From positions 1-47,058 of the forward strand of contig CAZKQD010000003.1 in assembly GCA_964554835.1 (NCBI GenBank): a stretch of 47,058 nucleotides of DNA. Direction: 5' to 3'. This stretch comes from an uncultured Planctomycetia bacterium. Lineage in GTDB: Bacteria > Omnitrophota > Gorgyraeia > JAGLLT01 > CAZKQD01. Positions 20,781 to 35,967 of this stretch are shown here, piece after piece; the stretch's first letter is position 1, and each line of letters starts with the position of its first letter. Below the pieces are notes generated by a model that ran no database searches, was not told where the DNA came from, and saw only the letters and a program-made list of their open reading frames with translations. A program made the translations under genes and the position numbers.

Positions 20781-20809
20781 TTGACGATAAAATAGAATAA
20801 TTGTATAAT
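20781..20809 (+). promoter_or_regulatory. Sigma-70-type promoter for the pilus/secretion locus
   Basis: TTGACG (20781-20786), 17-nt spacer, TATAAT (20804-20809). Lies 32 nt upstream of the TTG start at 20841, with AAGAGG in between. Confidence 0.6.
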
Positions 20810-20840
20810 ATTACGGTGCTACTATAAAGAGGCAGTTAAA

Positions 20841-22553
20841 TTGATTAATGATAGAAGATTAATTATAGAAAGTATAAAAAATACAGGTCTATTAGATGAT
20901 AGTCAGATAGAAAAGGCCCTGCAGATACAAAGTAAGAATAAACAGAGATTTGGCACTGTTTTGGCTCAATTGAGCTATATTGCCAACGAAGATACAGGGA
21001 TAAGTTTACCTTCTCAGATTGGTTTAGTGCCTGTGCCTATAGATAAAAAAAAGATTTCTGATGAAACCCTTAAAAGGATTTCCTCTAAGATTGCCTACCA
21101 CCACAGGATTATGCCTATCGAGTTAGAAGATAATATTCTCACCATTGCTACGGATGATCCTTTAAATTTTCTTGCCATGGAGAATTTAGAAAAGATTTTG
21201 GGAGTTAAATTAGAGATTATTCTTACTACTGAGGATGAGTTGATCTTGTTACAGAAACAACATTACGGAGAAAAGAAGGAAGAGAAAAAGGTCTTTGATA
21301 AAGTTATTGATAAGATGGAAATAGACAAAGAAATGCCCAGAGCAAAAGAGGAAACAGGGGGATTAACCGCTGATGGAGAAAGCGCTCCCATTATTAGATT
21401 AGTTACTTTGATTTTAACAGAAGGTGTGAAGAAACGAGCAAGTGATATTCATATTGAGCCCTTAGAGAAGAAACTCAGAGTTAGATATAGAATTGATGGT
21501 ATTCTGCATGAAGTTAGCGGTCCGCCAAAACATCTTCAGGGTTCAATAATAAGTAGAATAAAGTTGATGGCCGGACTTGATATTGCTGAGAAGCGTCTCC
21601 CTCAAGATGGGCGTATAAGGATAAAACTTTTAAATAAAGATTTAGACTTGAGAGTCTCAAGTTTACCTGGTATTTATGGCGAAAGCATTGTTATGAGAAT
21701 ACTGGATAAATCAAGTCTTCTATTGGGCCTTGAAGAATTAGGATTTTTATCTGATGACAGAAAGAAATTCGAGAAACTCATTAATACACCTAATGGGACT
21801 TTACTTGTTACAGGTCCTACAGGTTCAGGTAAGACGACTACACTATACGCAGCTTTAAATTCTATCAATCAACCCAATAAGAAATTAATCACTATTGAGG
21901 ATCCAGTTGAGTATCAGATAAAGGGCATAAATCAGGTCCAGATAAAACCTCAGGTTGGATTAAATTTTGCTGCAGGTCTACGCTCTATGTTACGACAAGC
22001 TCCTGATATTATAATGGTTGGTGAGATACGAGATAAAGAGACAGCTTCTGTTGCAATACAGGCGGCCTTAACCGGGCACTTAATTTTTTCAACCCTCCAC
22101 ACTAATGATGCACCTGGCGCTGTGACCAGATTGATAGATATGGGCATAAAGCCATACTTAGTTGCATCAACTCTCCAGGCCGTCTTAGCCCAAAGATTGG
22201 TTCGTTGCGTTTGTTCTAATTGCAGAGAACAATATCAACCTAAACCCGAAGAGTTAAATGCCTTGAATTTAAAAAAAGAAGACTTATCTGAGGCTACATT
22301 TTATAAAGGTAAAGGTTGCCCTGAGTGCAATGATAGTGGCTATAAGGGAAGAATTGGCATATTTGAACTTTTGATTATGGATGATACACTTAGAGAGATG
22401 ATATTTGAGAGAAAATCAAGTGCTGAGATAAAAACCAAAGCCGTTGAACTTGGAATGAAAACCTTAAGAGAAGATGGCAAACAAAAAGTATTAAAGGGCA
22501 TTACTACAATAGGAGAGGTAGTAAGGGTTGCTCAGCTTGAAGAAGAAATATAA
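20841..22553 (+). CDS. PilB/GspE-family assembly ATPase, paralog 1
   Basis: N-terminal T2SSE_N-like region, Walker A GPTGSGKTTT, IEDPVEY, Walker B PDIIMVGEIRD, His box GHLIFSTLHTNDA. Tetracysteine CSNC...CPEC. TTG start. Confidence 0.9.
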   Translation: MINDRRLIIESIKNTGLLDDSQIEKALQIQSKNKQRFGTVLAQLSYIANEDTGISLPSQIGLVPVPIDKKKISDETLKRISSKIAYHHRIMPIELEDNILTIATDDPLNFLAMENLEKILGVKLEIILTTEDELILLQKQHYGEKKEEKKVFDKVIDKMEIDKEMPRAKEETGGLTADGESAPIIRLVTLILTEGVKKRASDIHIEPLEKKLRVRYRIDGILHEVSGPPKHLQGSIISRIKLMAGLDIAEKRLPQDGRIRIKLLNKDLDLRVSSLPGIYGESIVMRILDKSSLLLGLEELGFLSDDRKKFEKLINTPNGTLLVTGPTGSGKTTTLYAALNSINQPNKKLITIEDPVEYQIKGINQVQIKPQVGLNFAAGLRSMLRQAPDIIMVGEIRDKETASVAIQAALTGHLIFSTLHTNDAPGAVTRLIDMGIKPYLVASTLQAVLAQRLVRCVCSNCREQYQPKPEELNALNLKKEDLSEATFYKGKGCPECNDSGYKGRIGIFELLIMDDTLREMIFERKSSAEIKTKAVELGMKTLREDGKQKVLKGITTIGEVVRVAQLEEEI

Positions 22554-22573
22554 AAAAAATTAAGGAGCAGATA

Positions 22574-23635
22574 ATGGCAGATATTAATGACTATTTAAAA
22601 GAATGCATAAAACAAAAAGCTTCAGATTTACATTTAACGGTAGGTAAGCCACCAATTTTAAGAATTGACGGAAGCCTTAAACCTTTAAATGATACAATAT
22701 TGAAGGAAGATGATTTAGTGGAAATTATGAAGCAGATTACAAATGATGAGAAAAGAAAAGAGATTGAAGAATCTGGCGGCTGTGATTTTGGTTTTAGTTT
22801 TGATAGTGTTGCAAGATTCAGAGCTTCAATTTATAAGGCAAAAGGTACGATTGGCATATCTCTCAGATTTATATCTTCAAAACTTTTTACTTTTGAAGAG
22901 TTAGGTTTATCGGAAAAAATCAGAGAGCTATTACATAGACCTCGAGGTTTGATTCTTGTTACAGGTCCAACAGGTTCAGGTAAGACGACTACCATAGCAA
23001 CTTTAACAGACTACATAAACTCTAATATGGGTTCTCATATAATTACAGTTGAGGATCCAATAGAATATTATCACAACCATAAAAAAAGTATCGTTACTCA
23101 GAGAGAAGTAGGAGTTGATGTTCCATCTTTCTCAGAGGCAATAATCAAAGGATTAAGAAGCGACCCGGATGTGATACTTGTTGGAGAAATGCGAGATTTA
23201 CAAACTATTAAAGCAGCGCTCCTCGCAGCAGAGACAGGACATTTGGTTTTTGCTACTTTACACACCATAAGTGCGGTTCAGACAGTTGATAGGATAATAA
23301 ATTCCTTTCCAGTTCATCAACAGGAGCAGGTAAGGATTCAGCTTTCAGCAGTTATTTTAGCAGTTTTATCTCAGCAGCTTTTAATCAGAAAATCTGACAA
23401 AGGAAGAGTAGCTTGCTTTGAGATTATGATATTAACTCCATCCATTCAAAGCCTAATTAGAGAAAGGAAAACTTTCAGGATAATCTCTGAACTTCAAACA
23501 GGTGCAAAATACGGTATGAGGACTTTTGATGCGTCATTAATTAAACTCTACCGAGACGGCGTAATATCAAAAGAGAGTGTATATAGCAAAGCTTTTGATA
23601 AGGAGCAGATTGAGCAGATGTTGAAAGGAAAATAG
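22574..23635 (+). CDS. pilT: Type IV pilus retraction ATPase PilT
   Basis: ASDLHLTVGKPPILRIDG, GPTGSGKTTT, VEDPIEY, DPDVILVGEMRD and GHLVFATLHT. 353 aa without the long N-terminal domain; the SIQSLIRERK block resembles the PilT signature. Confidence 0.9.
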   Translation: MADINDYLKECIKQKASDLHLTVGKPPILRIDGSLKPLNDTILKEDDLVEIMKQITNDEKRKEIEESGGCDFGFSFDSVARFRASIYKAKGTIGISLRFISSKLFTFEELGLSEKIRELLHRPRGLILVTGPTGSGKTTTIATLTDYINSNMGSHIITVEDPIEYYHNHKKSIVTQREVGVDVPSFSEAIIKGLRSDPDVILVGEMRDLQTIKAALLAAETGHLVFATLHTISAVQTVDRIINSFPVHQQEQVRIQLSAVILAVLSQQLLIRKSDKGRVACFEIMILTPSIQSLIRERKTFRIISELQTGAKYGMRTFDASLIKLYRDGVISKESVYSKAFDKEQIEQMLKGK

Positions 23636-23645
23636 GTAATTACTT

Positions 23646-25373
23646 ATGCCTGAAGGAAAATTTATTAAAAAACCTATAGGTGGAATACTACTAGACCAAA
23701 ACGTCATATCCCAAGAGCAGCTTGATGAAGCATTGGAAGAGCAGAAGAAAAGCGGTCGCCTCTTGGGAAAGATCCTTATTGATTTAGGTTTTGCAGCAGA
23801 AGAGGATATTTTAAAAGCTTTAGGTAGCCAGGTAGATATAAAGGTAAGCGAACTCAGTAAAATTGAGATTCCTAAGGAAATTATAGATAAAATTCCTGCC
23901 TCGTTAGCTCAAGTTTATAATATTGTTCCTGTAGAATTTACAAATGGCGTACTTACAATTGCATTATCTGATCCTTTAAATATAAACGTCTTAGATGATT
24001 TAAGGTTTGTCTTAAATTGTGAAGTTCAAAGTGTAGCAGCTAAAGAAGAAGACATTAGTAAAGCGATCGAGAAATACTATGGAGGAGAGGCCGGAGAAGG
24101 ATCTATAGATAAGTTAGTCAAAGAAATAGAAGAAAGTCAACCGAGGGTTTTAACTGCAGAGGTAAAAGAAAAACAAGATATTGCCAGCTTAAAAGAATTA
24201 GCATCTCAGGCACCAGTTGTAAAGCTGGTCAACTTAGTATTACTTCAGGCAGTAAAGGATAAAGCCAGCGATATACACTTTGAACCATTTGAGGATGAGT
24301 TTAAGGTAAGATATAGAGTGGACGGTGTCTTATATGAGATAAGTCATCCACCAAGGGAGTTAAACTTGGCAATAACATCAAGAATTAAAGTAATGGCTAA
24401 TTTAGACGTTGCTGAGTCTAGAGTGCCTCAAGATGGACGTATTATGATGAAAGTGGCTGGCCGAGCAATAGATTTACGCGTATCTACTCTTCCGACTATC
24501 TTTGGCGAAAGTGTAGTTATAAGGGTTTTAGATAGAAGCGTAATTAACCTATCCTTAGATGAAATAGGTCTTAGCCCAGAATTAAAAGAAAAAGTTGAAA
24601 AATTGGTATCTAAACCAAATGGTATAATTTTAGCAACAGGTCCTACCGGCTGCGGTAAGACTACAACTTTATATTCATGTTTGAGAAAGATAAATAAAAT
24701 AGATTACAAAATTATCACAACTGAAGACCCTGTAGAATATGATATTACAGGAATAGTTCAAGTAACTATCAGACCTAAGATAAATCTAACCTTCGCTACA
24801 TGCCTGAGACACATATTAAGACAGGATCCTGATATTATAATGGTCGGTGAGATACGAGACAAAGAGACAGCTCAAATTAGTGTTCAGGCTTCTTTAACAG
24901 GTCATTTGGTATTTAGCACACTTCATACTAATGATGCACCCGGCTCAATTACAAGATTAGTAGATATGGGAGTAGAACCCTTTTTAATTACCTCAACTCT
25001 TGAAGCAGTAATTGCACAAAGACTAGTGAGAGTATTGTGCCCTAAATGTAAAGAGCTTTATACTCCTTCGGAGCACGAGTTAGCTGAGATAGGATTAACG
25101 CCGGATAAAGCAAAGGATAAGAAGTTTTATAGAGCAAAAGGGTGCCCTGAATGCAATGATATTGGTTATAAAGGAAGAACTGCAATATTTGAAATTTTGA
25201 TAATAGGTAATAAATTAAAAAGTCTGATTATGGAGAAATCTCACACTGCAATTCTTAGAAGAGCAGCAATTAAATCTGGAATGCGCACTTTAAGAGAAAG
25301 CGGCTTACTTAAAGTTTACGATGGAATAACAACGATAGAAGAAATAGTAAGAGAAACTCGGGGATACGCTTAA
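23646..25373 (+). CDS. PilB/GspE-family assembly ATPase, paralog 2
   Basis: Same motif set as paralog 1 (GPTGCGKTTT, TEDPVEY, PDIIMVGEIRD, GHLVFSTLHTNDA, CPKC...CPEC). The N-terminus has two tandem 24-residue MshEN-like repeats. Confidence 0.9.
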   Translation: MPEGKFIKKPIGGILLDQNVISQEQLDEALEEQKKSGRLLGKILIDLGFAAEEDILKALGSQVDIKVSELSKIEIPKEIIDKIPASLAQVYNIVPVEFTNGVLTIALSDPLNINVLDDLRFVLNCEVQSVAAKEEDISKAIEKYYGGEAGEGSIDKLVKEIEESQPRVLTAEVKEKQDIASLKELASQAPVVKLVNLVLLQAVKDKASDIHFEPFEDEFKVRYRVDGVLYEISHPPRELNLAITSRIKVMANLDVAESRVPQDGRIMMKVAGRAIDLRVSTLPTIFGESVVIRVLDRSVINLSLDEIGLSPELKEKVEKLVSKPNGIILATGPTGCGKTTTLYSCLRKINKIDYKIITTEDPVEYDITGIVQVTIRPKINLTFATCLRHILRQDPDIIMVGEIRDKETAQISVQASLTGHLVFSTLHTNDAPGSITRLVDMGVEPFLITSTLEAVIAQRLVRVLCPKCKELYTPSEHELAEIGLTPDKAKDKKFYRAKGCPECNDIGYKGRTAIFEILIIGNKLKSLIMEKSHTAILRRAAIKSGMRTLRESGLLKVYDGITTIEEIVRETRGYA

Positions 25374-25470: not shown

Positions 25471-26757
25471 TTGCTGAAATTTGAATATAAAGCTATAGAT
25501 GCAAACGGCAAAGAGGTATCAGGAATTATTGAAGCCGATAGCACACAGGATGCTATTACAAAAGTTAAAAGTAAGGGATATTATCCCATTGAGCTTAACG
25601 AGATAGAAGCTGAAAGACAAGCGCCGATCTCAACAAAGAAAAAGAATAAAGAGACTAAAAAGAGGGGCAGCCTAAACAAAGAAATAACTATTCCTTTCTT
25701 GGGAATCGGCGTAGTTAAATCTCAGGACGTGGCAATCTTTACCAGACAACTTGCTACTATGATAAATGCAGGGCTACCTTTAGTGAGAAGTCTCAATGTA
25801 TTATGTGAACAGTTACGATCAGGGCCCCTAAAAGACATAATAGTTTCTTTATTAGACGAGGTTACTGCGGGTGGTTCCTTAAGTGAGGCCTTATCCAAAT
25901 ATCCTAAAGTTTTCTCACCCTTATATATAAATATGGTAAGAGCTGGTGAATCAGGAGGAGTTTTAGAGATAATTTTAGAAAGATTAGCTAATTTTATTGA
26001 GAAGAACTTAGAACTAATCCGAAAGGTTAAATCCGCCCTTACATATCCTGCTTTAGTTGTGATATTTGCTGGTGGCGTTCTTATATTTTTGACAGTATTC
26101 CTTATTCCTAAGTTTATGGGAATTTTTCAAACTATGGAAATCGGAAAATTACCTGCCGTTACTTCATTTATTTTAAACTTTTCTCAGCTATTTCAGCACA
26201 AGTGGTATATTGGACTTGGACTTTTAGCAATTTTATATTTCGGATATAAAGCAGCTATTAAATCTAAAAAGTCTAGATTGTTTATAGATAGGATAAAATT
26301 ACGTTTGCCCATTATAGGTGAACTGTTGCTAAAAATTGAAGTTACTAGGTTTACCAGAACATTAGGCACTCTTATATCAAGTGGCGTTCCAATCTTGCAG
26401 GCTTTAAGGATTGTAAAAGGCGTTGTTAAAAATGAGGTTATATCACGAGCTATTGCTCAAGTACATGATAGTATCAGAGAAGGTGAATCTATAGCCAGAC
26501 CTCTTAAGGCAAGCGGTGTTTTCCCGCTTATGGTAGTCAATATGGTTGATGTAGGAGAAGAGACTGGTTCATTAGATAGTATGTTTATGAAAGTTGCTGA
26601 TATATATGATAGCGAGGTAGACACTACAATAAATTCTCTTACCTCAATAATAGAACCTATATTAATTATCACAATGGGGCTTATGGTAGGTTTTATCGTG
26701 ATAGCTATGTTCTTGCCGCTTATCAAACTAATGACTACAATTGGCTTGAGTAGCTAA
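25471..26757 (+). CDS. pilC: PilC/GspF-family inner-membrane platform protein
   Basis: Two T2SSF-type repeats (FTRQLATMINAGLPLVRSL and FTRTLGTLISSGVPILQAL). TTG start 8 nt after AGGAGG. Confidence 0.9.
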   Translation: MLKFEYKAIDANGKEVSGIIEADSTQDAITKVKSKGYYPIELNEIEAERQAPISTKKKNKETKKRGSLNKEITIPFLGIGVVKSQDVAIFTRQLATMINAGLPLVRSLNVLCEQLRSGPLKDIIVSLLDEVTAGGSLSEALSKYPKVFSPLYINMVRAGESGGVLEIILERLANFIEKNLELIRKVKSALTYPALVVIFAGGVLIFLTVFLIPKFMGIFQTMEIGKLPAVTSFILNFSQLFQHKWYIGLGLLAILYFGYKAAIKSKKSRLFIDRIKLRLPIIGELLLKIEVTRFTRTLGTLISSGVPILQALRIVKGVVKNEVISRAIAQVHDSIREGESIARPLKASGVFPLMVVNMVDVGEETGSLDSMFMKVADIYDSEVDTTINSLTSIIEPILIITMGLMVGFIVIAMFLPLIKLMTTIGLSS

Positions 26758-26883: not shown

Positions 26884-27333
26884 ATGAAAAATAAAGGGTT
26901 TACTCTTATTGAGATTATGATAGTTTTAGTAATTATTGGTATCTTGATGGGTTTAATCTCTGCAGCAGCTTTTAAAGCAATGGAGTCAGCCAAAAAAAGC
27001 AGGGCAGAGGTCGATATAGCAACATTAGAAACTGCCTTATCTGCCTATGAAGCAGATATAGGAGATTATCCGCCGTCGGCTGCTTTTGCAGATAATTCAT
27101 TCAAGGCTTGGTTGGAGGATTCAAGTGGTCAGCCATCAAGTTGGAATGGCCCTTATATGCATTTTAAAAATGAGGATTTAACATCAGGAAGCGACCCTGT
27201 TTGTGATCCATGGAATAATGCATATAAATATAAAGCCCCTGGTTCTAATAATTCTGGATTTGTAGATATTTATTCATTTGGGCCTGATGGCAGTAATAAT
27301 GGCGGTGCCGGTGACGATATAAAGAACTGGTAA
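26884..27333 (+). CDS. gspG: GspG-type major pseudopilin
   Basis: Prepilin leader MKNKG|FTLIEIMIV with Glu at +5. The C-terminal block DPWNNAYKYKAPG...YSFGPDGSNNGGAGDDIKNW closely follows the T2SS GspG pattern. Confidence 0.85.
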   Translation: MKNKGFTLIEIMIVLVIIGILMGLISAAAFKAMESAKKSRAEVDIATLETALSAYEADIGDYPPSAAFADNSFKAWLEDSSGQPSSWNGPYMHFKNEDLTSGSDPVCDPWNNAYKYKAPGSNNSGFVDIYSFGPDGSNNGGAGDDIKNW

Positions 27334-27338
27334 CGAAA

Positions 27339-27917
27339 ATGCAACGATTCAATATAGAAAAGAGCAAAAATTGTATAGCTTTTACCCCATTAGAAATAGA
27401 ACGCAAACGCAAGCGTTCGCGATTTCTAACGGGGTTTACACTTATTGAAATGTTGGTAGTGCTTATTATTATTAGCATTATTACCGCGGCAACATTGCCT
27501 TATTTTTTCAGCTTCTATACAGGCCAGGAACTTAAAACTTCTGCAAGAGTTGTAGCTTCAGTGTTGCGCACTGCTAAAAGTTATGCAACAACTAAAAATA
27601 CAGATTGCTGGGTCGAATTCACGCCCTCAACCAATAAATTGGAAATAGCTATCTATCATGCAGATGTCTTTGATGAAGATGGTGATGGCAATACTACTGA
27701 ATCAGTCCAGCAAGGCAAAACAGAAAAACTAGAGCTTGCAACTGGGGTTGTGTTTAGTACCAGCTTTACAAATGATAAGGTGACTTTTACTCCTCAAGGC
27801 ACATGTAATGGAGGAACTGTTGAGATAACAAATACTTCGAAAAGTAAGGAAGTTGATATATCAGTTTCTCCGGTTACAGCAAGGGTGAGTATCTCAGATA
27901 TAGAACCTCCTGATTGA
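27339..27917 (+). CDS. Prepilin-type minor pseudopilin (GspH/FimT-like) with unusually long leader
   Basis: G|FTLIEMLVVLIII cleavage/methylation motif preceded by a 32-residue leader. There is no alternative start codon between the palindrome and the motif. ELKTSARVVASVLRTAKSYA is GspH-like. Confidence 0.7.
   Translation: MQRFNIEKSKNCIAFTPLEIERKRKRSRFLTGFTLIEMLVVLIIISIITAATLPYFFSFYTGQELKTSARVVASVLRTAKSYATTKNTDCWVEFTPSTNKLEIAIYHADVFDEDGDGNTTESVQQGKTEKLELATGVVFSTSFTNDKVTFTPQGTCNGGTVEITNTSKSKEVDISVSPVTARVSISDIEPPD
27385..27434 (+). promoter_or_regulatory. ~50-nt imperfect palindrome inside the leader-coding region of the second pseudopilin gene
   Basis: CCCC-A-TTAGAAAT-A-GAACGC / loop AAACGCAA / GCGTTC-GCG-ATTTCTAA-C-GGGG, giving about 18 paired positions. 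Located about 50 nt after the gspG stop. Confidence 0.5.
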
Positions 27918-28351: not shown

Positions 28352-28934
28352 TAAGGGCTTTACAATTATTGAACTTTTAGTAGCTTCTGTTATATTGGTT
28401 ATCTTGTTTGGCAGCATAACAGCGGTTTTTTTAGCGGCTAATCGTTCATGGACTCAAACTGAGGCAAGACTGCAGATATATCAAAATGCAAGAGAGGCCT
28501 TAGATACAATGTCAAGAGAGCTAACAACTGCTTTTCAGCCTTCAAATCCCTCCTTGCAGAAATTCGACTGGGATACCACTCCTGATCCTGGCGAATTACA
28601 TTTTACAGCTTCTTATAATTTTAATCCTGAGTCGGGCGAGTATGACCTGTGTCATTTAGGATATCGACAGGATAATTCTAATAATGAAATAGAGAGATAT
28701 AAAGAAGATTATGGTAATCCTGGTGGTAGCTGGATGCCAATAGCTGAGCATATAACAAGTTTGAGTTTTGAGTATTATGACGGTCCAAGTTCAAGTTGGG
28801 TTTCGGTTTGGGATAATACCGCTAAAGATTATTTACCCAAAGCAGTTAGAATTACTATTCAAGTTCAGGATAAACAGGAAAGATACGAACCCAAAACATT
28901 CCAGAATATAATTTATCTGCCGGCGAGTCAATAA
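28311..28934 (+). CDS. Prepilin-type minor pseudopilin (GspJ/PilW-like)
   Basis: RNKG|FTIIELLVASVILVILFG, then the RSWTQTEARLQIYQNAREALDTMSRELTTAF block typical of GspJ-like proteins. The ATG at 28311 overlaps the upstream gene by 41 nt, so the exact start is uncertain. Confidence 0.65.
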   Translation: MKILLPIWPTLRRNKGFTIIELLVASVILVILFGSITAVFLAANRSWTQTEARLQIYQNAREALDTMSRELTTAFQPSNPSLQKFDWDTTPDPGELHFTASYNFNPESGEYDLCHLGYRQDNSNNEIERYKEDYGNPGGSWMPIAEHITSLSFEYYDGPSSSWVSVWDNTAKDYLPKAVRITIQVQDKQERYEPKTFQNIIYLPASQ

Positions 28935-29061: not shown

Positions 29062-30699
29062 ATGATAAAAAATCTAATTGGTTTAGATATAGGATCAGAT
29101 TCTATAAAACTGGTAAAGCTAAAGAAAGTAAAAGGTAAGATTGAATTAGAAAAAGCCAGGGCCGTAGAACTGAAAGAAGTCAAGTCTATTAAGCAGGGCG
29201 TAGCCAGTCTTTTGAGAAGTGAGAAAATAAGCTCCTGCAAGGCCGCTATTTCTATTTCTGGTCAGTCTGTATTTACACGTTTTGTAAAATTACCTAAAAT
29301 CTCTCAGAAGAAAGTTGAACAAGTTGTAAAATATGAAGCCCAACAGCAGATTCCCTTTCCTATAGAAAAAGTAGTTTGGGATTATCAATTATTTGAAAAT
29401 AGTAAGACATCTGAGGTAGAGATTTGTCTTGCTGCAGTTAAGAAGGAAATTGTAGATAGTCTCTATAATGAACTTTCGCAACTAAAAATAAATATTATCT
29501 CTATACAGCCTTCTCCTATAGCCTTATATAACATGCTGAAATTTAACGAGGATGTAAAAGATAACACTATTGTTTTAGATATAGGAGCAAAGGTTACCGA
29601 TGTCTTTATAACAAAAGGAAGAAGAGTCTGGATAAGAAGCATTCCTATTGCTGGTAAAGAGATAACCCGTGCCATAAGTGGAAAGTTAGATATTGGCATT
29701 AAGGAAGCAGAGGTCTTGAAGCAGAGAGAGGGAATTACTTTAGTAGGCGCCACTGGAGATGAAAATTTAACTCCTCGTTCAGACGCTATCTCAAAAGCCA
29801 TAAATCCTGTCTTAGCCGATCTTCTAAAAGAGATATCGCGCTCCGTCAATTATTATAAATCACAATTTGACAGAGAAGCAGTCTGTGAGAGTGTTTTACT
29901 TACCGGAGGAAGCTCAAATATAAAATACATTGAAAAGTTCTTTGAAAATAATTTAAAAATTAAAACTCAGAAACCCAACCTGCTTAAGAAAATTACCCCT
30001 AATAAATTTACCAAAGCTACACTGGATGAAACAGAAGGTCAATGGGCAGTAGCTTTAGGCTTAGGCCTAAAGGCAGTTATAGAACCCACCATCAATATAA
30101 ATCTTTTGTCTAAAGAACTGAAGAAGTTTAAAAAATTTGACAGTAAAAAACCTTATATATTTGCTTCTGAAGTTACAGCTATTTTAATATTTCTTATATT
30201 ATCATCCTTCTGCATAAACAACATCAACGCCAATAAGAAAAACTTATCTTTAATAAAGGATAAAATGGACTATTTCCGCAAAAACAGCCAGATTATAGAC
30301 AGCATCCAGTCTGATATAAGCGGTTTAAAAAATAGGTTGGATTTTTTAACCAAAATAAATAGAAGTAAACAGTTCTGGTTAGATATCTTAGCTGAAGTAA
30401 ATAGCAAGATTCCTAAAGAAACTTGGCTTATAAGTTTTAGGTCTGATGATGAGAGCGACAAAACAGTTATAATCGAGGGGAAGACTGTCGGTTCATTCGA
30501 TTCTGTTAAGAACTTAAGAGAGAGTTTAAAGAAATCTGAATATTTTATAAATGTTGAAACTTTAAGAGCCGACCCAGCAGCCAAAGAAGAAGGTAAAGAA
30601 GCAAAGCCAGATTGTAATATTATATTTACAATGAAATTAGAGCTAGCTGAGGAAATTCCTTTAGTGTTAAATGATAAAGAAACTGGCAAAACCAAATGA
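29062..30699 (+). CDS. PilM-PilN fusion protein (GspL-like architecture)
   Basis: N-terminal actin-like PilM part (GLDIGSDSIKLVKL, VKLPKISQKKVEQVVKYEAQQQIPFP, VLDIGAKVTDV, LLTGGSSNI). This is followed by ININLL (the PilN N-terminal peptide motif), one TM helix (VTAILIFLILSSFCI) and a PilN-like periplasmic domain. Confidence 0.75.
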   Translation: MIKNLIGLDIGSDSIKLVKLKKVKGKIELEKARAVELKEVKSIKQGVASLLRSEKISSCKAAISISGQSVFTRFVKLPKISQKKVEQVVKYEAQQQIPFPIEKVVWDYQLFENSKTSEVEICLAAVKKEIVDSLYNELSQLKINIISIQPSPIALYNMLKFNEDVKDNTIVLDIGAKVTDVFITKGRRVWIRSIPIAGKEITRAISGKLDIGIKEAEVLKQREGITLVGATGDENLTPRSDAISKAINPVLADLLKEISRSVNYYKSQFDREAVCESVLLTGGSSNIKYIEKFFENNLKIKTQKPNLLKKITPNKFTKATLDETEGQWAVALGLGLKAVIEPTININLLSKELKKFKKFDSKKPYIFASEVTAILIFLILSSFCINNINANKKNLSLIKDKMDYFRKNSQIIDSIQSDISGLKNRLDFLTKINRSKQFWLDILAEVNSKIPKETWLISFRSDDESDKTVIIEGKTVGSFDSVKNLRESLKKSEYFINVETLRADPAAKEEGKEAKPDCNIIFTMKLELAEEIPLVLNDKETGKTK

Positions 30700-31490
30700 A
30701 ATTTTATAAGGTATTCTTAAAAAAGAACTTAGTTAGTCTTATAGCAATAGCAGTTCTATTTCTAGGAATTGTTGCCTCGGGTATATTTTTTGTTTCTAAC
30801 CTAAGAGAAGAGAATGCTATTGAGGAGAAGATAAATTCAGAACTAAAAATATTTAATCTTTTTAAAGGCAAGGAAGAATATGTGCCGACTACTTCTTGGA
30901 TCCAATACAGCGAGAAAGAGAAAGAGGAGCTCAAAAGCATATATGATAAAATAATGAAAGAATTGGATGCGCCGTCTGCAAGAATGCCGGATGAGGTTAG
31001 AGAACCTTTAAAATTTAAAGAAGAAATTTTTAATGTACAAGATGAGCTACAACAGCAAGCTATATCAAAAGGTTTAACGTTTGATAAAGAAGCTCAATCT
31101 CTGGGTTTTAAAGAATATGAGAAGAAGATTCCAGCTGAAGAGGAAATACCCAATTTAACTGAAAAACTACTAATTGCTGAAGAATTAGTTAACTTAATGT
31201 TTAACAGTAACATAGATAAACTAACAAACATCAAATTTTCAGATTGTAAAGATAATACTCTTGATGGCGAAAGCTCACTATCCTACAGAGTTACTCCGAT
31301 AGAATTAAAGATTACCTCATCAGTGAAAGAGTTGGCGCATTTTCTTTATTTTTTATCTGAGTCTGAGTATATTTTTGTGGTTAATAGTGTTAATATCAGT
31401 TCATCGATAGATGAAAAAGATAAAGTTCAAGCTTATTTGGATATATCTTCTATTGTATTTCTGGAGAAGAAGGCAAAAAAAGAAAAATGA
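30696..31490 (+). CDS. PilO/GspM-like bitopic alignment protein
   Basis: N-terminal TM helix, coiled-coil region, and C-terminal block YRVTPIELKITSSVKELAHFLYFLSESEYIFVVNSVNISS resembling PilO. ATGA overlap with the upstream gene. Confidence 0.55.
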   Translation: MKFYKVFLKKNLVSLIAIAVLFLGIVASGIFFVSNLREENAIEEKINSELKIFNLFKGKEEYVPTTSWIQYSEKEKEELKSIYDKIMKELDAPSARMPDEVREPLKFKEEIFNVQDELQQQAISKGLTFDKEAQSLGFKEYEKKIPAEEEIPNLTEKLLIAEELVNLMFNSNIDKLTNIKFSDCKDNTLDGESSLSYRVTPIELKITSSVKELAHFLYFLSESEYIFVVNSVNISSSIDEKDKVQAYLDISSIVFLEKKAKKEK

Positions 31491-32176
31491 TAATAAAAAA
31501 AAATCTCCTTATAGATCATTTAGAGAAAGTAGCGCTGGGTCTTTTAGTAATTTTATTACTGGCCATTGCAGCGCTTTATGCAAGTAGAATTATTTTTAAA
31601 GAGCTGGATATAAAAAATAAACTTTCATCAGTTAAATTTTCTGAACCACCTGAAGCCATTAAAGGACTTGATAAATACAAAAAGGCCCTTAAAGAGCTGC
31701 AGAGTGAGAAAAAATTTACAAGTTATCAAGCCGATTTTAGCAGAAATAGTTTTTCTAAATATGTGAAAATAGAACCTCCAAAACCATTATTTGAGTTAAG
31801 ATCTATTGGAAGGCTTCCTTTAAATATACAATATAATGGATTCATTGAGTATAGTGGTGGCATAATTGGTCAGATTAATCTAAAAGGGACTACGTATTTT
31901 GTAAAAGAAAATGCAGAATTGATAGAGTATAAAACACTTGAACTTCATAGAAAATATGCTGTTCTTGAAGATAGTAAGGGTAACAAAATAAAACTGCCCC
32001 TGAGAGAACAGGTTTTATCTGATGAATATGAGGCCATAGTCTATCTAACTCGTGAAGATAAAACAACTAAGGTGAGAAAAGGTGATAAAATTAAAAATTT
32101 TCAAGTACTTGACATTTTACCCACTTATGTGGTATTATTTAACGAAACTACTAAAGAAAAGAAGCTTCTGAGATAG
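31487..32176 (+). CDS. Membrane-anchored beta-rich protein, possible PilP/GspC-like component
   Basis: N-terminal TM helix (VALGLLVILLLAIAALYA). C-terminal beta-rich segment ending KVRKGDKIKNFQVLDILPTYVVLFNETT. The call rests on position and overall shape only. Confidence 0.35.
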   Translation: MIIKKNLLIDHLEKVALGLLVILLLAIAALYASRIIFKELDIKNKLSSVKFSEPPEAIKGLDKYKKALKELQSEKKFTSYQADFSRNSFSKYVKIEPPKPLFELRSIGRLPLNIQYNGFIEYSGGIIGQINLKGTTYFVKENAELIEYKTLELHRKYAVLEDSKGNKIKLPLREQVLSDEYEAIVYLTREDKTTKVRKGDKIKNFQVLDILPTYVVLFNETTKEKKLLR

Positions 32177-32258: not shown

Positions 32259-32276
32259 TTTAATTCACGCATACGA

Positions 32277-32301: not shown

Positions 32302-32333
32302 GCGTGCGTTCATTTAAAAAGGAGAGATTTAAT

Positions 32334-33419
32334 ATGTCTAGATGGTATAAGTTAAGCAGTGTTATTGTGATTATAAGTTTTTTATTCACAGTTGGTTATT
32401 GCAATTCATCTTATGGTGAAAGTAGATTAAGAGTCCGCAGTTTAGCTGAAGAAATAGCGAAACAGAAACGGCTTGAGCAGGAAGAGATAGAAATCCTGGT
32501 AGAAGAGCGTACTCAACGTGGAATAGAAAGCTATAAGAAAGGTGACTATGCTGAGGCAATAAGACAGCTAACAGCAGTTTTAGAATTAAATCCAGATTAT
32601 AAGGAAGCAGAAAAATATCTAAATTTAGCCCGGGGTAACCTGCTTGATTCTGCTGAGAAGCACTATACCAAAGGTGTAGAATACTACAAAAACGGAGATT
32701 TTGTTAATGCAGTAAATGAATTAAATCAGATTCCTGAAGATAATCGTTACTATGAAGAAGCTCGAGAATATGTTAAAGCTGCTAGGAAGACATTAAAGAC
32801 AGCCGAAATTCCTGAACCCTCAAGTCCAGATTTTGAGAAAAAAGATGTTGAGAGAGAACTTAAAAATTTGGAAAAAGAACAAGAATTGGTGTTGCTTAAA
32901 AAGCAAGCTCAGGAAAAAAGAATGATGCTTGATGTGGAAAGAGCTTATTTGTTGCCAGAAAGGTTAAAGGAAAAGAAAGAAGAAGCGAAAGTAACTGCCG
33001 AAGAAATCGCAGCGAAGAAAAAAGAAAAAAGACAAAGAGAACTAATTGAGAAAATGAATCAAAATGTTGTTCCTGCTTTAAGTTTAAGTGATGCCAATAT
33101 TCAAGATGTAATAAGAGAACTTATGAAAATGACTGGCGCAACTATTATATTAGATGAAGGCGCCTTAAAGAGAGTAGCTGAAGATAAACCCATAAAAGTC
33201 TCATTTACTACAGTAACCTCTATGCCTCTTTTGGATTTGCTTGAGATAGCATTGAAGACTACTGAATTAGCATATAAAGTAGAGTCAAATTATATATGGA
33301 TCTCTGATGAAAAGACATTGTCAAAAGAGAAATTAATCACCAAAACCTATAGGTTAAAACACGGCGCAAGAAGAACACGCGAAGTATCATTAGTTGAATT
33401 TGGCAAAGAAGAGGATTAA
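32334..33419 (+). CDS. Membrane-anchored TPR/coiled-coil protein with C-terminal secretin N0 (STN)-like domain
   Basis: Start set at the ATG at 32334, after AAGGAGAG. TPR-like repeats (YKKGDYAEAIRQLTAVLELNPDY, YYKNGDFVNAVNELNQIPED) precede a K/E-rich coil. The C-terminus (LSLSDANIQDVIRELMKMTGATIILDEGAL...KVSFTTVTSMPLLDLLEIALKTTELAYKVESNYIWISD) reads like a secretin/TonB N0 domain. Confidence 0.6.
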   Translation: MSRWYKLSSVIVIISFLFTVGYCNSSYGESRLRVRSLAEEIAKQKRLEQEEIEILVEERTQRGIESYKKGDYAEAIRQLTAVLELNPDYKEAEKYLNLARGNLLDSAEKHYTKGVEYYKNGDFVNAVNELNQIPEDNRYYEEAREYVKAARKTLKTAEIPEPSSPDFEKKDVERELKNLEKEQELVLLKKQAQEKRMMLDVERAYLLPERLKEKKEEAKVTAEEIAAKKKEKRQRELIEKMNQNVVPALSLSDANIQDVIRELMKMTGATIILDEGALKRVAEDKPIKVSFTTVTSMPLLDLLEIALKTTELAYKVESNYIWISDEKTLSKEKLITKTYRLKHGARRTREVSLVEFGKEED

Positions 33420-33430
33420 CGCAGAAAGAA

Positions 33431-34522
33431 ATGAAAAAAAATATTTTATATATAGTTATTTTATTGGCTTTCTGTTTAAGTTCTCCTTTAAATTTAGATG
33501 CTCAAGACACAATAAGCATCAAGGAATACTTAAAGCAGATACTTCCGCCTCAAGAAGGAAGAAAGATTTTTTTAGATCCGACTACTGGTTTATTAACTAT
33601 AACTGATATTCCTTCCAATCATAAATTAATTAAGGAGTTAATAGAGGCCTTTGATATAGGAATCCCTCAAGTTATGATAGAGGTTAAATTTATTGAAGTT
33701 ACCATGACTGATATAGGTGAACTTGGAATTGAATGGTACTGGTATGATCAGGATAATGTAGGTAATGCAGCCGGATATGCTGACTATGTCCCTGGCCAGC
33801 AAGATACCGGTGATGGAATATTGTGGGGCAGAGAAAATGCAGCAGGAACTTATGAAAGTTTTCCGCATACAGGACATGGTTTTGATTTTTATATAGGTAA
33901 GGCTGATACCACAGGAGGCTATATTAGAGCTTATTTGCATGCTTTAGAAGAAAAAGGTAAAGCTAATCTTTTATCAGCTCCGAAAGTAACCACCCTTTCA
34001 GGTCAAATGGCTAATATGGAGGTAACTAAAACATTTCCCTACGTAAGCAATGTGGAATTAGAAAACCGTGGTACTGCAGAATATCCTATATGGGTTCTTA
34101 CACAAACCTATGAAGAGAAGACTATAGGAATTTCACTCGAGGTTACGCCTCGCGTAGCAGCACAAAGTAGATTTATAACTTTAGATCTTCATCCAGTGGT
34201 AGATGTGTTAGTAGCACAACGGTCTATCAAGCCTACTGCAGCCAGCGCAAGTTATCCTACAGTTCCAAGTGCTGTTGGTTGGCCAGTGATAGATACCCGT
34301 TCAACTCAAACCTCTATTGTAACAAAAAGTGGAGAGACAATAGTTTTAGGTGGACTTATTAAAGAGGATGAGAAAACATACACAAGAAAGGTTCCTGTTT
34401 TAGGTGATATCCCCTTATTAGGTAATCTATTCAAATATAAACATATAAATAAGGAAAAAAAGAGTCTTTTAATTTTTATTACTGCTACTTTAATAACGGC
34501 AGATGGTGAGAAATTAAGATGA
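33431..34522 (+). CDS. Short secretin, paralog 1 (363 aa)
   Basis: Signal peptide (LNLDA|QD) and one N-domain (GLLTITDIPSNHKLIKELIEAFD). Secretin core motifs: QVMIEVKFIEV, ANLLSAPKVTTLSGQMANMEV, ETIVLGGLIKEDEKTYTRKVPVLGDIPLLGNLFKYK, SLLIFITATLI. Confidence 0.85.
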   Translation: MKKNILYIVILLAFCLSSPLNLDAQDTISIKEYLKQILPPQEGRKIFLDPTTGLLTITDIPSNHKLIKELIEAFDIGIPQVMIEVKFIEVTMTDIGELGIEWYWYDQDNVGNAAGYADYVPGQQDTGDGILWGRENAAGTYESFPHTGHGFDFYIGKADTTGGYIRAYLHALEEKGKANLLSAPKVTTLSGQMANMEVTKTFPYVSNVELENRGTAEYPIWVLTQTYEEKTIGISLEVTPRVAAQSRFITLDLHPVVDVLVAQRSIKPTAASASYPTVPSAVGWPVIDTRSTQTSIVTKSGETIVLGGLIKEDEKTYTRKVPVLGDIPLLGNLFKYKHINKEKKSLLIFITATLITADGEKLR

Positions 34523-35658
34523 GGTTAAATTTTAAGATTTTATTCATAGTGCTGTTTTGTCCACTGCTATTTTTTAACAGTAGTTTTGCTCAAGATGGCC
34601 AGACTATTAAGGAATATCTTCAGCAAGTGCTTCCATCCCAGGAAGGAAGAAAAATTGTCTTAGATGAGACTACCGGGCTGCTAACCGTAACCGATACTCC
34701 CTCAAATCATAAATTAATTATGAAATTGATTGAAGTTTGGGATGTCGGTCCGCAACAGGTACGGATTGAGGCGCGGTTTGTGGAGATAGAAGAGAAGGCA
34801 TTACATGAAGTTGGCGTGGAGTGGTTAGCAAAAAAGACCGGTGACTATATATATTATGGCGAGGGTCCCCTGAGAAGTGCGGCAAGGAGCGCTAGTAATA
34901 CACCCGCTGAGCAACCTGCCAATTACCAAAACATAGAGCCGGGTTCGAGCGTTGTAGGTGAGTATAACTACAGTACTAGTAGAGCTATTCCTCCTTGGAG
35001 TGGTTCTGAAATGGGAGCTCCTCAAGAATTTGGAGGATTAGGTCTTTGGGTAGGAGACACTAATGTGGATGGGACTAAGCTCTTCGCCTATTTAAAAGCT
35101 CTTGAAGGGCAAGATAAAGCTAATCTTTTATCAGCTCCTATAATAACTACTTTATCAGGACAAATGGCTAATATTGAGTTAGCTAATGTTATACCTTATG
35201 CTTGTGGATACGAACAGACTGATACTGGTACCGGGGCATATGGTTATTATGAAACCTATGAGATAGAGGAAAAGAAAACAGGTATTTTTTTAGAGGTAAC
35301 TCCAACTGTTAGCAGAGGGCAAAAAATGATAACACTTGAATTACATCCTTCAGTAAGTGAAATTAGTTATCAGGTTGCAATTACTAATAGTAGCGAATTT
35401 CCAAGTTATTTAGGCTGGCCGGTGGTTGAAACCCGAAGTACTCAAACTTCAGTAATTGTAAGAAGCGGCCAGACAATTGCAATAGGTGGCTTAATAAGAG
35501 ATGATGAATCAACCACAAAACGTAAAGTTCCAATAGTAGGAAATATTCCTTTGCTCGGCAATCTCTTTAAATGGGAGCATACAAGCCGGACTAAGAGAAA
35601 TCTGGTTATATTCTTAACCGCGACTATAATAACACCCGAGGGCGAGGAGATTAAATGA
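34519..35658 (+). CDS. Short secretin, paralog 2 (379 aa)
   Basis: Same architecture and motif set as paralog 1 (QVRIEARFVEI, ANLLSAPIITTLSGQMANIEL, QTIAIGGLIRDDESTTKRKVPIVGNIPLLGNLFKWE, NLVIFLTATII). ATGA overlap with paralog 1. Confidence 0.85.
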   Translation: MRLNFKILFIVLFCPLLFFNSSFAQDGQTIKEYLQQVLPSQEGRKIVLDETTGLLTVTDTPSNHKLIMKLIEVWDVGPQQVRIEARFVEIEEKALHEVGVEWLAKKTGDYIYYGEGPLRSAARSASNTPAEQPANYQNIEPGSSVVGEYNYSTSRAIPPWSGSEMGAPQEFGGLGLWVGDTNVDGTKLFAYLKALEGQDKANLLSAPIITTLSGQMANIELANVIPYACGYEQTDTGTGAYGYYETYEIEEKKTGIFLEVTPTVSRGQKMITLELHPSVSEISYQVAITNSSEFPSYLGWPVVETRSTQTSVIVRSGQTIAIGGLIRDDESTTKRKVPIVGNIPLLGNLFKWEHTSRTKRNLVIFLTATIITPEGEEIK

Positions 35659-35664
35659 TTAGCT

Positions 35665-35967
35665 ATGTTTAAGAGAATTATTTCTGCTTTAATATTTTTA
35701 AGTTTCCTGTCTTATCTTCCAGTTGCCCTATCAGAAGAGCAGAAAATCAAATTACTTACTACTAACCTAAATGAACCCTATAAAGTTGTAGGTTTTGTTA
35801 GTTATCGTTCAGGTTTCCCAGATTTAGATAAGATAAATGAGCATCTTATAAAACAAGCTAAAGGTCTGGACGCTGATTATGTTATAGGCATAAGATATAT
35901 AACTTATGCAAGTTATCTATTTGCCTACGGCACTGCTGTTAAGACTGTTAAAACTAAAAGCAAATGA
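35665..35967 (+). CDS. Small exported protein with YbjQ/UPF0145-like C-terminal segment
   Basis: Signal peptide MFKRIISALIFLSFLSYLPVALS. AKGLDADYVIGIRY...AYGTAVKTVK resembles the GADAVVG...GTAVK blocks of YbjQ-family proteins. Confidence 0.45.
   Translation: MFKRIISALIFLSFLSYLPVALSEEQKIKLLTTNLNEPYKVVGFVSYRSGFPDLDKINEHLIKQAKGLDADYVIGIRYITYASYLFAYGTAVKTVKTKSK

Follow-up and report, generated by a model that had tools for sequence, protein, structure and literature searches.

Gene content of the locus

The genome of an uncultured Planctomycetia bacterium, which GTDB places in Omnitrophota, contains a locus related to type IV filament machines, in which genes typical of type IVa pili (T4aP) stand beside genes resembling those of type II secretion systems (T2SS). 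The locus occupies positions 20781-35967 of a stretch of 47,058 nucleotides (NCBI GenBank assembly GCA_964554835.1, contig CAZKQD010000003.1, positions 1 to 47,058 of the forward strand). This stretch is referred to as the window, and it is the part of the genome covered by the analysis. The fifteen open reading frames (ORFs) of the locus are all intact, closely packed, and on the + strand, and the GC content of the region is about 35%. Both flanks consist of housekeeping genes, with leuCD-like genes, mdh, surA, pdxA, ksgA, gatAB, ctpB, tsaD, and PHO4/PhoU upstream and polA, coaE, rho, prfA, prmC, aroA, and trmD downstream, and therefore the window represents chromosomal DNA of a diderm bacterium. 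Protein families were assigned with Pfam and NCBIfam hidden Markov models (HMMs), by best match and by model cutoff. The features are as follows, the motor and pilin genes preceding the envelope genes.

20781..20809, + strand: sigma-70-like promoter TTGACG-17-TATAAT, 11/12 consensus, preceding E1
20841..22553, + strand: E1, assembly ATPase of the GspE/PilB family, 570 amino acids (T2SSE 472 bits, MshEN N-domain)
22574..23635, + strand: PilT retraction ATPase, 353 amino acids (TIGR01420 444 bits, cutoff 319)
23646..25373, + strand: E2, assembly ATPase of the GspE/PilB family, 575 amino acids (T2SSE 475 bits, MshEN)
25471..26757, + strand: inner-membrane platform protein GspF/PilC, 428 amino acids (T2SSF twice, 228 bits)
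26884..27333, + strand: major subunit, GspG-family prepilin, 149 amino acids, leader MKNKG/FTLIE with cleavage at the slash (N_methyl, T2SSG)
27339..27917, + strand: minor pilin of the GspH/FimT family, 192 amino acids (GspH PF12019 35 bits, N_methyl; GspH and ComGD models under cutoff)
27959..28351, + strand: minor pilin, PilV/GspI-like, 130 amino acids (N_methyl; PilV 37.7, XpsI 31, and GspI 27.8 bits, all under cutoff)
28311..28934, + strand: minor pilin, GspJ/PilW-like, 207 amino acids (T2SSJ PF11612 30.9 bits, cutoff 28; N_methyl; Verru_Chthon cassette protein C 46.9)
29062..30699, + strand: PilM-PilN fusion of the Amuc_1101 family, 545 amino acids (PilM_2 120 bits; actin-like PilM, transmembrane helix, periplasmic PilN)
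30696..31490, + strand: PilO-like bitopic protein of the Amuc_1100 family, 264 amino acids (NCBIfam Amuc_1100 54 bits, under cutoff)
31487..32176, + strand: PilP/GspC-HR-like bitopic protein in the Amuc_1099 position, 229 amino acids (AlphaFold model and Foldseek)
32304..33419, + strand: exported protein with tetratricopeptide repeats (TPR) and an N0 domain, 361-371 amino acids (TPR; Amuc_1098 family positions 216-370; PilW/Tgl pilotin-like matches)
33431..34522, + strand: short secretin core, paralogue 1, 363 amino acids (signal peptide, one N-domain; Secretin 148 bits, Secretin_N 31 bits)
34519..35658, + strand: short secretin core, paralogue 2, 379 amino acids (Secretin_N and Secretin; 47% identical to paralogue 1 over 269 trimmed columns)
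35665..35967, + strand: small exported protein, 100 amino acids (weak YbjQ-like matches only)

Seven of the products (E1, E2, the major pilin, PilM-PilN, the TPR-N0 protein, and both secretins) were compared with the public NCBI gene calls and are identical to them; the start of the TPR protein is at 32334 in the public call and at 32304 in the ORF. An initial annotation of this DNA had listed the same genes, and the ORF translations place every one of them at its coordinates on the + strand. Its order of two ATPases followed by PilT has to be corrected to ATPase-PilT-ATPase.

Motors, platform, and pilins

The two assembly ATPases are closest to GspE by family model and to PilB among the sequences in the PDB. 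E1 scores 648.8 bits with TIGR02533 (GspE, cutoff 630) and 635.7 with TIGR02538 (PilB, cutoff 675.65), and the corresponding scores of E2 are 653.5 and 647.8. The best full-length matches of E1 and E2 in the PDB are the PilB proteins of Geobacter and Myxococcus, with 495 and 543 bits against 433 and 442 bits for EpsE, a gap that comes largely from the N-terminal region. Walker A and B, His box, and tetracysteine motifs can be read in the translations of both. The cyclic di-GMP (c-di-GMP) binding motif of the MshEN domain is intact in E2 (NF053729, 63.4 bits against a cutoff of 38) and degenerate in E1 (27 bits). A small neighbor-joining tree of the ATPases (327 columns, 100 bootstraps) has the canonical GspE proteins of E. 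coli, Yersinia, and Acinetobacter in a clade with 100% bootstrap support that does not include E1 and E2. The E2 proteins of the Planctomycetes-Verrucomicrobia-Chlamydiae (PVC) bacteria form their own clade (88%) with E1 as a weak sister, and this group joins the PilB proteins of Myxococcus and Geobacter with only 54% support.

PilT falls within the PilT clade of the same tree with 100% support. Its best PDB matches are the PilT proteins of Aquifex, Geobacter, Thermus, and Pseudomonas (331-352 bits), it looks intact from its sequence, and it has orthologues with 56-70% identity in those PVC loci where the ATPase module is present. The platform protein matches the GspF model TIGR02120 best (418.9 bits, cutoff 424), followed by the Thermus-type PilC model (396.7).

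The major pilin belongs to the GspG family. It passes the GspG equivalog TIGR01710 (98 bits, cutoff 88.85), it is 36% identical to E. coli GspG, and its best PDB matches are PulG (5wda, 4e-13) and EpsG. The alignment with these two proteins runs through the C-terminal DPW..Y..G.DG..DDI motif, confirming the GspG-type C-terminus noted earlier, and the likeness to PilA and other T4a pilins is limited to the N-terminal helix. A GspG-family pilin and PilT do therefore share one locus, as the initial annotation had stated. The resemblance of the three minor subunits to GspH, GspI, and GspJ is also borne out by the Pfam and NCBIfam matches, and all three carry N_methyl. The GspH/I/J/K set and the T4aP set FimU/PilV/PilW/PilX are homologous, and because of this the minor pilins cannot separate T4aP from T2SS. 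In the GspH-like pilin, the leader with the sole available ATG has 31 residues before G/FTLIEM, and in the orthologues of the related loci L001, L004, and L005 it has about 4-14 residues.

Some relatives encode a large subunit that was not found in the window. In the loci L001, L008, and L042, GspJ is followed by a GspK/PilX-like protein of 794-930 amino acids with a helix-hairpin-helix (HhH) motif. Its HHH_3 domain scores 56 bits in L001 and 42 bits in L042, with co-matches to the T2SSK Pfam family, and L008 also encodes PA14 and right-handed beta-helix proteins between GspJ and PilMN. These large genes are candidates for tip adhesins or DNA binders, judging from their domains. They span 6319-8703 in L001, 1327-9919 in L008 (all large genes), and 4330-7122 in L042. 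In the window and in L004, PilMN follows GspJ directly and the pilin block has no K-like gene; in L005, GspJ is directly before PilMN and a gap of about 1.6 kb lies inside the pilin block. Searches of the 47-kb window and of 83 related loci gave no prepilin peptidase, an enzyme that is often encoded elsewhere (PMC6668835). The initial annotation had reported GspK, GspC, and prepilin peptidase missing from the window; none of these was found there, and neither were homologues of GspL and GspM.

Alignment complex

The PilMNOP subcomplex is represented by PilM above its cutoff and by PilN, PilO, and PilP at a marginal or fold level, with PilM and PilN fused. The PilM part scores 150 bits with TIGR01175 (cutoff 133), the PilN part 22.3 with its Pfam model (cutoff 22.8), and the fusion as a whole 306.7 bits with the Amuc_1101 family, under the cutoff of 650. 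The PilO-like protein itself has no Pfam match; its orthologues in three related loci carry PF28028 (Amuc_1100). A profile of sixteen members of its family matches the Amuc_1100 structures 6KNY and 6LAD in the PDB (E = 5e-12), and the next matches are to PilO, with the structures 2rjz and 5uvr at E = 0.06-0.1 and PilO of Pseudomonas and Myxococcus as a whole at E = 0.06-1.5. The earlier PilO-like assignment is upheld by these matches, of which the best to PilO itself has E = 0.06.

The PilP-like protein was recognized by its fold. It has no Pfam match, and neither sequence nor profile searches of its family against the PDB gave any. It has an N-terminal transmembrane helix and no lipobox cysteine, and its AlphaFold2 model is all beta over residues 100-229, with a predicted local distance difference test score (pLDDT) above 90. 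The top Foldseek matches are the PilP structures 3jc8_P, 2lc4, 2y4y, and 2ivw from Myxococcus, Pseudomonas, and Neisseria, and the HR domain of GspC (3oss_C, TMt 0.73). E-values of the fold matches are modest (1e-3 to 7e-2), and the matches are all consistent, with probability 1.0. The previous identification of a PilP-like protein is therefore supported at the level of the fold.

The resemblance of the alignment proteins to the T2SS components is one of architecture. Searches with tblastn using the E. coli or Comamonas proteins gave no match to GspL, GspM, or GspC. Homology of PilMN and the Amuc_1100-like protein to GspL and GspM was considered and dropped, as hhalign comparisons with E. coli GspL, the Comamonas L-like protein, and Comamonas GspM were not significant; an architectural analogy between them may be retained. 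GspL is the structural equivalent of a fused PilM and PilN, GspM of PilO, and GspC, which is membrane-anchored and has an HR domain, of PilP. Through the equivalences with GspL and GspC, the PilMN fusion and the membrane-anchored PilP-like protein therefore have T2SS-like topologies.

A secretin divided over three genes

The domains of a long secretin are distributed over a TPR-N0 protein and two short secretin cores, each with its own signal peptide. The TPR-N0 protein has a Sec signal peptide and no conserved cysteine, and it is not a lipoprotein. In its structural model long helices are followed by an alpha/beta domain at residues 250-331. Matches to this domain are the N0 domains of three secretins, LspD of Legionella, PilQ of Neisseria, and GspD of enterotoxigenic E. 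coli, as well as related STN signaling domains, and the model also matches TPR proteins, so that the TPR plus N0 call made earlier holds. Both secretins rank GspD over MshL and MshL over PilQ, all under cutoff, with 176, 164, and 155 bits for the first of them. With the PilQ model the two secretins score 155 and 148, under the cutoff of 284 and under their GspD scores. Models of HofQ-type DNA-uptake secretins also match both, and no AMIN domain was detected in the secretins of the window.

The division is a regular feature of Omnitrophota. In other PVC lineages, TPR, N0, N-domain, and secretin domain are in one protein of 700-1300 amino acids, and the TPR-N0 protein is colinear with the N-terminal half of such long secretins and a short secretin with the other half (722 amino acids in L002, 787 in L015, 818 in L017, and 893 in L042). 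Every Omnitrophota locus that covers the region has a TPR-N0 gene of 365-462 amino acids, two secretins of 360-400, and a gene of about 100. The small gene always follows the second secretin in Omnitrophota, and its orthologues in L001, L005, L007, L008, L009, L011, and L012 have 41-53% identity. The three-gene layout with the 100-amino acid gene persists down to about 32% PilMN identity within the phylum. A small neighbor-joining tree has clades of the first and second secretin type that each span the sampled Omnitrophota (68% and 74% bootstrap), within an Omnitrophota clade of 84%. In the same tree, independent tandem duplications of secretins appear in Victivallales (99%) and in another lineage (81%). 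The duplication of the secretin core in Omnitrophota is old, judging from these clades. Because two copies have been retained repeatedly, a heteromeric or two-state channel is suggested. The explanation that the three genes are a frameshifted long secretin, and thus a pseudogene, was rejected in view of the conservation to about 32% PilMN identity, the separate signal peptides, and the phylum-wide paralogue clades.

Distribution in the PVC superphylum

The PilM-PilN fusion is found in at least 515 protein clusters and in at least 587 loci of GTDB species representatives, which were scanned with a PilM-PilN alignment, one genome per species. The closest homologues (54-81% identity) are in metagenome-assembled genomes of Omnitrophota named Omnitrophica or Kappaea, followed by Auribacterota at about 33% and Verrucomicrobiota at about 30%. 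The best 80 of the at least 587 loci include Omnitrophota, Verrucomicrobiota, Kiritimatiellia, Lentisphaerae/Victivallales, Auribacterota, and Brocadiia. Nearly all of these 80 that have a phylum label are of PVC type; one is labeled Acidobacteriota, and several are labeled only "bacterium."

Synteny was mapped on 83 related loci. Across these phyla the conserved order is PilMN, an Amuc_1100-family gene, a third small transmembrane protein, the secretin or secretins, the polA 5'-exonuclease, coaE, and rho. This neighborhood is conserved across phyla, and therefore the locus is old and vertically inherited. The synteny survey proposed with the initial annotation thus shows a common core from PilM-PilN to the secretin, with conserved flanks shared by at least 587 PVC loci. 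The linkage from the secretin to polA, coaE, and rho (33431-41669 in the window) occurs in Omnitrophota, Verrucomicrobiota, Kiritimatiellia, Lentisphaerae, and Auribacterota. In E. coli, coaE is two genes from hofC-hofB-ppdD, with guaC between, and the association of pilus genes with coaE may be very old. The ATPase-PilT-ATPase-platform module adjoins the cluster in Verrucomicrobiia; L003 has all four genes in the order of the window, and the stretches fetched for the other Verrucomicrobiia loci end before the first ATPase. Omnitrophota loci repeatedly have the full set, split secretin and GspG-type pilin block included, and GspG-type genes lie within 10 kb of PilMN in some loci of Verrucomicrobiota, Victivallales, and unclassified PVC bacteria.

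The related loci connect this system to the Amuc_1098-Amuc_1102 cluster of Akkermansia, since their orthologues carry the Pfam families Amuc_1100 and Amuc_1102. The cluster from Amuc_1098 to Amuc_1101 has been regarded as encoding type IV pili since 2016-17 (PMC4960237, PMC5332112). The secretin Amuc_1098 is abundant in the outer membrane and has a TPR at its N-terminus (PMC4960237), and the proteins Amuc_1098-1102 co-fractionate and have been tied to pili-like structures (PMC5332112). By tblastn, an Amuc_1102-like gene is directly upstream of PilMN in 55 loci outside Omnitrophota, and it was not found in the window or in any Omnitrophota locus, where the GspG/H/I/J block is on that side. Amuc_1102 was rejected as a pilin of the PVC system, as it has an ordinary Sec signal peptide and no prepilin motif. 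In Omnitrophota, a TXSScan survey of 421 genomes by Seymour et al. found type-4a pili in nearly all, with expression in Velamenicoccus archaeovorus (PMC10066038). The "T2SS-like" loci beside giant genes of Omnitrophota in the West-Roberts preprint are a different system, of the Tad/RcpC type.

Classification of the machine

The products of the locus probably form a single type IV filament machine that spans the envelope and has the architecture of a T4aP, with a GspG-family pilin and retraction by PilT, as the Omnitrophota form of a PVC lineage that includes Amuc_1098-1101 of Akkermansia. It is a lineage variant and not a new machine class. Part for part it resembles the T4aP of Myxococcus, Geobacter, and Thermus, with a PilB-like assembly ATPase that has an MshEN region, PilT, PilC, PilM, PilN, PilO-like and PilP-like proteins, and a secretin. 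Both also have a pilotin-like TPR element, and in both the minor pilins belong to the FimU/PilV/PilW families, which correspond to GspH/I/J. They differ in several parts. The major pilin of T4aP is of the PilA type, whereas the sole candidate here is of the GspG family; PilM and PilN form one polypeptide, and a transmembrane helix anchors the PilP-like protein, while PilP of T4aP is a lipoprotein. The secretin, which has no AMIN domain, is divided among genes and its core is duplicated. The locus has two assembly ATPases, and neither PilY1 nor a PilX/GspK-like protein is present in the window.

The likeness to T2SS, represented by the gsp system of E. coli K-12 and a system of Comamonas, consists of the GspG major subunit, the order E-F-G-H-I-J-(K) followed by L-like and M-like genes, ATPases that narrowly pass the GspE equivalog, and a secretin and platform that score best with GspD and GspF. 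However, a PilT gene lies between the two assembly ATPases, and canonical T2SS have none; PilT is not part of the T2SS class as surveyed (PMC6668835). The window also differs from T2SS in having no GspK, in ATPases outside the GspE clade, and in N0-N2 domains that are carried by a separate protein and not by the secretins, and its counterparts of GspL, GspM, and GspC are similar in topology and HR-domain fold alone.

Two other groups offer partial parallels. The clostridial type of type IV pilus has PilM-PilN as one polypeptide beside PilT, PilC, and PilB, for example in a plasmid locus of Alkaliphilus with a pilM gene of 561 amino acids. Fused PilMN is known from Clostridia, which are monoderm and hence have no secretin or PilP, and their pilins are not GspG-type. 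The Akkermansia type shares the PilM-PilN fusion, the PilO-like protein, the transmembrane protein in the Amuc_1099 position, and the TPR-bearing secretin, and Verrucomicrobiota loci share the gene order and the downstream polA-coaE-rho; in Verrucomicrobiia the GspE-PilT-GspE-GspF module adjoins as well. Unlike the window, the Akkermansia cluster has Amuc_1102 where the window has a pilin block, and its secretin is one long protein of the Amuc_1098 family, with 800-1300 amino acids in this type of system, whereas the same domains are spread over three genes here. All scores of the window proteins with the Amuc families are under the NCBIfam equivalog cutoffs, and they are distant homologues rather than equivalogs.

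The best HMM matches are mixed. E1 and E2 (marginally), the platform, the major pilin, and both secretins lean toward T2SS, and PilT (444, cutoff 319) and PilM (150, cutoff 133) lean toward T4aP. The initial annotation had described a mixture of T2SS and T4aP parts, and this mixture is real, with best matches to GspE, GspF, GspG, and GspD alongside the T4aP hallmarks PilT and PilM. Its conclusion that the machine fits no standard class does not stand, given a T4aP architecture part for part and a PVC-wide, vertically inherited core. It had added that assignment of all components to one known class, with a gene set common in characterized organisms, would speak against that conclusion. The gene set is indeed common, and in spirit one class is indicated, but the components are not placed cleanly in it by their models.

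Several observations weigh against a T4aP assignment. The order E-F-G-H-I-J-(K)-[PilMN]-[PilO-like] is that of T2SS operons and recurs in the T2SS on the Comamonas plasmid. The major pilin is a genuine GspG-family protein, and secretins, platform, and ATPases score marginally better with T2SS models. The window is without prepilin peptidase and without the large GspK/PilX-like subunit that relatives encode after GspJ. The ATPase tree is small and its backbone support weak (13-57%). We know of no observation of a filament, retraction, or function for this locus or for its PVC homologues, beyond localization and abundance in Akkermansia. In addition, the T4aP calls in Omnitrophota could concern a second pilus locus, and their match to this locus could not be confirmed (PMC10066038).

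The Comamonas system is a further case of blurred T4aP and T2SS features. It is a non-canonical T2SS on a plasmid of Comamonas odontotermitis (NZ_CP083452.1, 301539-312623, L087) with the order E-F-G-H-I-J-K-"PilN-domain protein"-M-D, where the gene in the GspL position is annotated as "PilN domain-containing protein." Its GspE, of 579 amino acids, has a PilB-like N-terminal region and is 44% identical to E2 over 98% of the length.

Proposed mechanism and alternatives

A working model for a retractile pilus of T4aP architecture can be assembled from these parts. A prepilin peptidase encoded elsewhere would process the GspG-family major pilin and the H/I/J-like minor pilins, and the minor pilins would prime the filament on the GspF/PilC platform. 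One or both of E1 and E2, as hexameric ATPases of the PilB/GspE type, would polymerize the GspG-type subunit, with E2 probably gated by c-di-GMP through its MshEN motif. PilT would depolymerize the filament, which could thus extend and retract. The PilM-PilN fusion, the PilO-like protein, and the membrane-anchored PilP-like protein are predicted to form an alignment ring in the inner membrane, and the HR-type domain of the PilP-like protein would dock to N0 on the free periplasmic TPR-N0 protein and not on the secretin. The TPR-N0 protein may organize the channel of the two secretins, with its TPR part acting as a built-in pilotin, in line with the PilW/Tgl-like matches. Both short secretin paralogues would make up the outer-membrane channel, perhaps within one mixed ring, and the conserved exported protein of 100 amino acids would be their partner. 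The most likely role is that of a dynamic surface pilus, adhesive or twitching, for attachment to or movement on surfaces or host or prey cells, because of the presence of PilT and the lifestyle proposed for Omnitrophota as host-associated nanobacteria (PMC10066038).

A functional T2SS is an unlikely alternative reading, in which a short GspG pseudopilus would drive folded exoproteins through the secretin like a piston, with PilT only resetting or disassembling it in an early-branching system that never lost the retraction ATPase. It draws on a major pilin that passes the GspG equivalog and keeps the PulG/EpsG C-terminal motif, on GspE, GspF, and GspD as best NCBIfam matches, and on a gene order like the E-F-G-H-I-J-K-L-like-M-D of Comamonas. 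PilM-PilN has the topology of GspL, the PilP-like protein is membrane-anchored like GspC, and the next gene downstream of the locus, both in the window and in L001, L005, L009, and L012, encodes an exported Peptidase_MA_2 protein. A reduced T2SS also operates in Chlamydiae, another PVC phylum (PMC6668835). However, PilT, which is absent from the T2SS surveyed (PMC6668835), is present here and in the PVC loci with the ATPase module, both ATPases branch apart from canonical GspE, the searches described above gave no sequence similarity to GspL, GspM, or GspC, PilM passes its own model, and the TXSScan literature scores T4aP in the phylum (PMC10066038). A machine that works in two modes, with two outputs that the two assembly ATPases would draw from a single platform, is rated somewhat lower still: for example, E2 with bound c-di-GMP might build long adhesive pili and E1 short secretion strokes, or the two might form mixed hexamers, with PilT as the switch. 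Both ATPase paralogues are full-length and apparently catalytically intact from their motifs, only E2 keeps the c-di-GMP motif, and the E1-PilT-E2-F order is conserved in Verrucomicrobiia. Type IV pilus systems that secrete proteins are known in Francisella, in Vibrio (TCP), and in Dichelobacter. Against two modes, the window encodes a single platform and a single major pilin with a single set of minor pilins; no substrates were identified, and E1 orthology across PVC bacteria is based on short partial fragments.

DNA uptake is very unlikely as the function. A competence pilus would bind extracellular DNA and pull it through the secretin, and PilT and a secretin are what T4aP-mediated transformation requires; the GspK-like protein of relatives has a strong HHH_3 domain (56 bits in L001, 42 in L042), and HofQ-type models match both secretins. 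But the HhH protein is missing from the window, ComEA, ComEC, and DprA were not found there, and HhH is also a normal feature of GspK, as the T2SSK co-matches indicate. Least credible of all, and hardly to be entertained, is that the system is decaying or incomplete. The window has no K-like gene between GspJ and PilMN, unlike L001, L008, and L042, it has no peptidase, and the nearby polA gene has an in-frame TAG. Yet all fifteen ORFs are intact and tightly packed, and the layout without K is maintained, because L004, and L005 at the GspJ-PilMN junction, share it at 56-64% identity. The peptidase was likewise not found in 83 related loci, so it is evidently encoded elsewhere.

Known and apparently new features of the system

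The machine class (T4aP-like, of the PVC Amuc type), the common gene set, and the status of the phylum as T4aP-positive are already known. Among open-access papers, no description was found of a GspG-family major pilin in a PVC machine with PilT, nor of the split and duplicated secretin or the asymmetry of E1 and E2. The features that are apparently new are the TPR-N0 protein with two anciently duplicated short secretin cores, the two assembly ATPases of which one has an intact c-di-GMP motif, and the lack of a GspK-like subunit in this lineage.

The combination bears on the relationship between pili and secretion systems. In the published picture, T2SS emerged from among diverse T4aP, and outside Proteobacteria there are many systems that are "generic" or chimeric (PMC6668835); a PVC lineage with T4aP architecture and a GspG-family pilin is compatible with it. 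The boundary between T4aP and T2SS has been drawn mostly from Proteobacteria, and it is blurred across a superphylum in which a GspG fold, a T2SS-like order of genes, and GspD-, GspE-, and GspF-like sequences occur with PilT and PilM. T2SS-like and T4aP parts coexist in PVC bacteria, which are therefore a natural test ground for the origin of secretion from pili. A bolder and more doubtful proposal is that these loci form an ancient PVC-wide branch of type IV filaments between T4aP and T2SS, with a retractile GspG-type filament, PilT kept, and T2SS-like order and topologies, to which Omnitrophota would have added a free TPR-N0 adaptor and a heteromeric ring of two secretins. If so, the branch would be a living intermediate of the transition from T4aP to T2SS, and Amuc_1100 would be recast as an inner-membrane alignment subunit of the PilO/GspM type.

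Omnitrophota have been proposed to be host-associated nanobacteria (PMC10066038). They are ultra-small and probably host-dependent, pili are the leading candidates for host attachment, and a parts list with a split and duplicated secretin and two motors, one of them probably c-di-GMP-gated, matters for that question. The product of Amuc_1100 is widely studied (PMC5332112, PMC10688800), including for therapy, and homology puts it in the PilO position of an alignment complex, which bears on its interpretation.

Putative regulatory sites and neighboring genes

The promoter at 20781 that was proposed in the initial annotation is the best consensus match of the region (11/12), although promoter-like sites in total are at chance level compared with shuffled sequence. 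Other sigma-70-like sites, matching 10-11 of 12 positions and in two cases with an extended -10 TG, are at 26760-26789, 28987-29014, and 32109-32138. They lie at three gaps of about 128 bp, before the pilin block, PilMN, and the TPR-N0 gene, and the -35 element of the 32109 site falls within the 3' end of the preceding gene. The sites at 20781, 26760, 28987, and 32109 suggest four putative transcription units, in a region where the number of such sites is not above chance. The gap of 380 bp upstream of the locus (20461-20840) contains the repeated short words catagct/gatagctcatagc and three copies of agtcac, an ORF of 70 amino acids without family match, and, shortly ahead of the promoter, a terminator-like hairpin at 20741-20763. 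Scans for Rfam families and tRNA genes gave no match in the window.

Upstream of PHO4/PhoU, a bactofilin domain is fused to an HTH_17 DNA-binding domain (17332-17874), which is an unusual fusion, and a small protein with HTH_17 alone follows (18042-18386). The polA gene (36841-39501) has a single in-frame TAG at 37498-37500 that separates the 5'-3' exonuclease part (36841-37500) from the rest (37501-39501) in the same frame. In the unbroken orthologue of L001, which has 909 amino acids, this position is an arginine. Possible explanations of the TAG are an error in sequencing, a nonsense mutation that arose recently, a gene that is naturally split, and read-through. Among the plasmid-collection entries, NZ_CP104448.1 from Acinetobacter baumannii (L086) is labeled "plasmid unnamed1" and is chromosome-sized (4.09 Mb) and almost unannotated. 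Directly 3' of the pilus locus, at 36024-36833, is the gene for the exported Peptidase_MA_2 zinc protease, which has an HEITH motif. It is conserved at this place in L001, which has two copies, and in L005, L009, and L012, and a Peptidase_MA_2/DUF1570 protein also flanks the cluster in the Verrucomicrobiia locus L003; the protein might be an accessory factor or a substrate.

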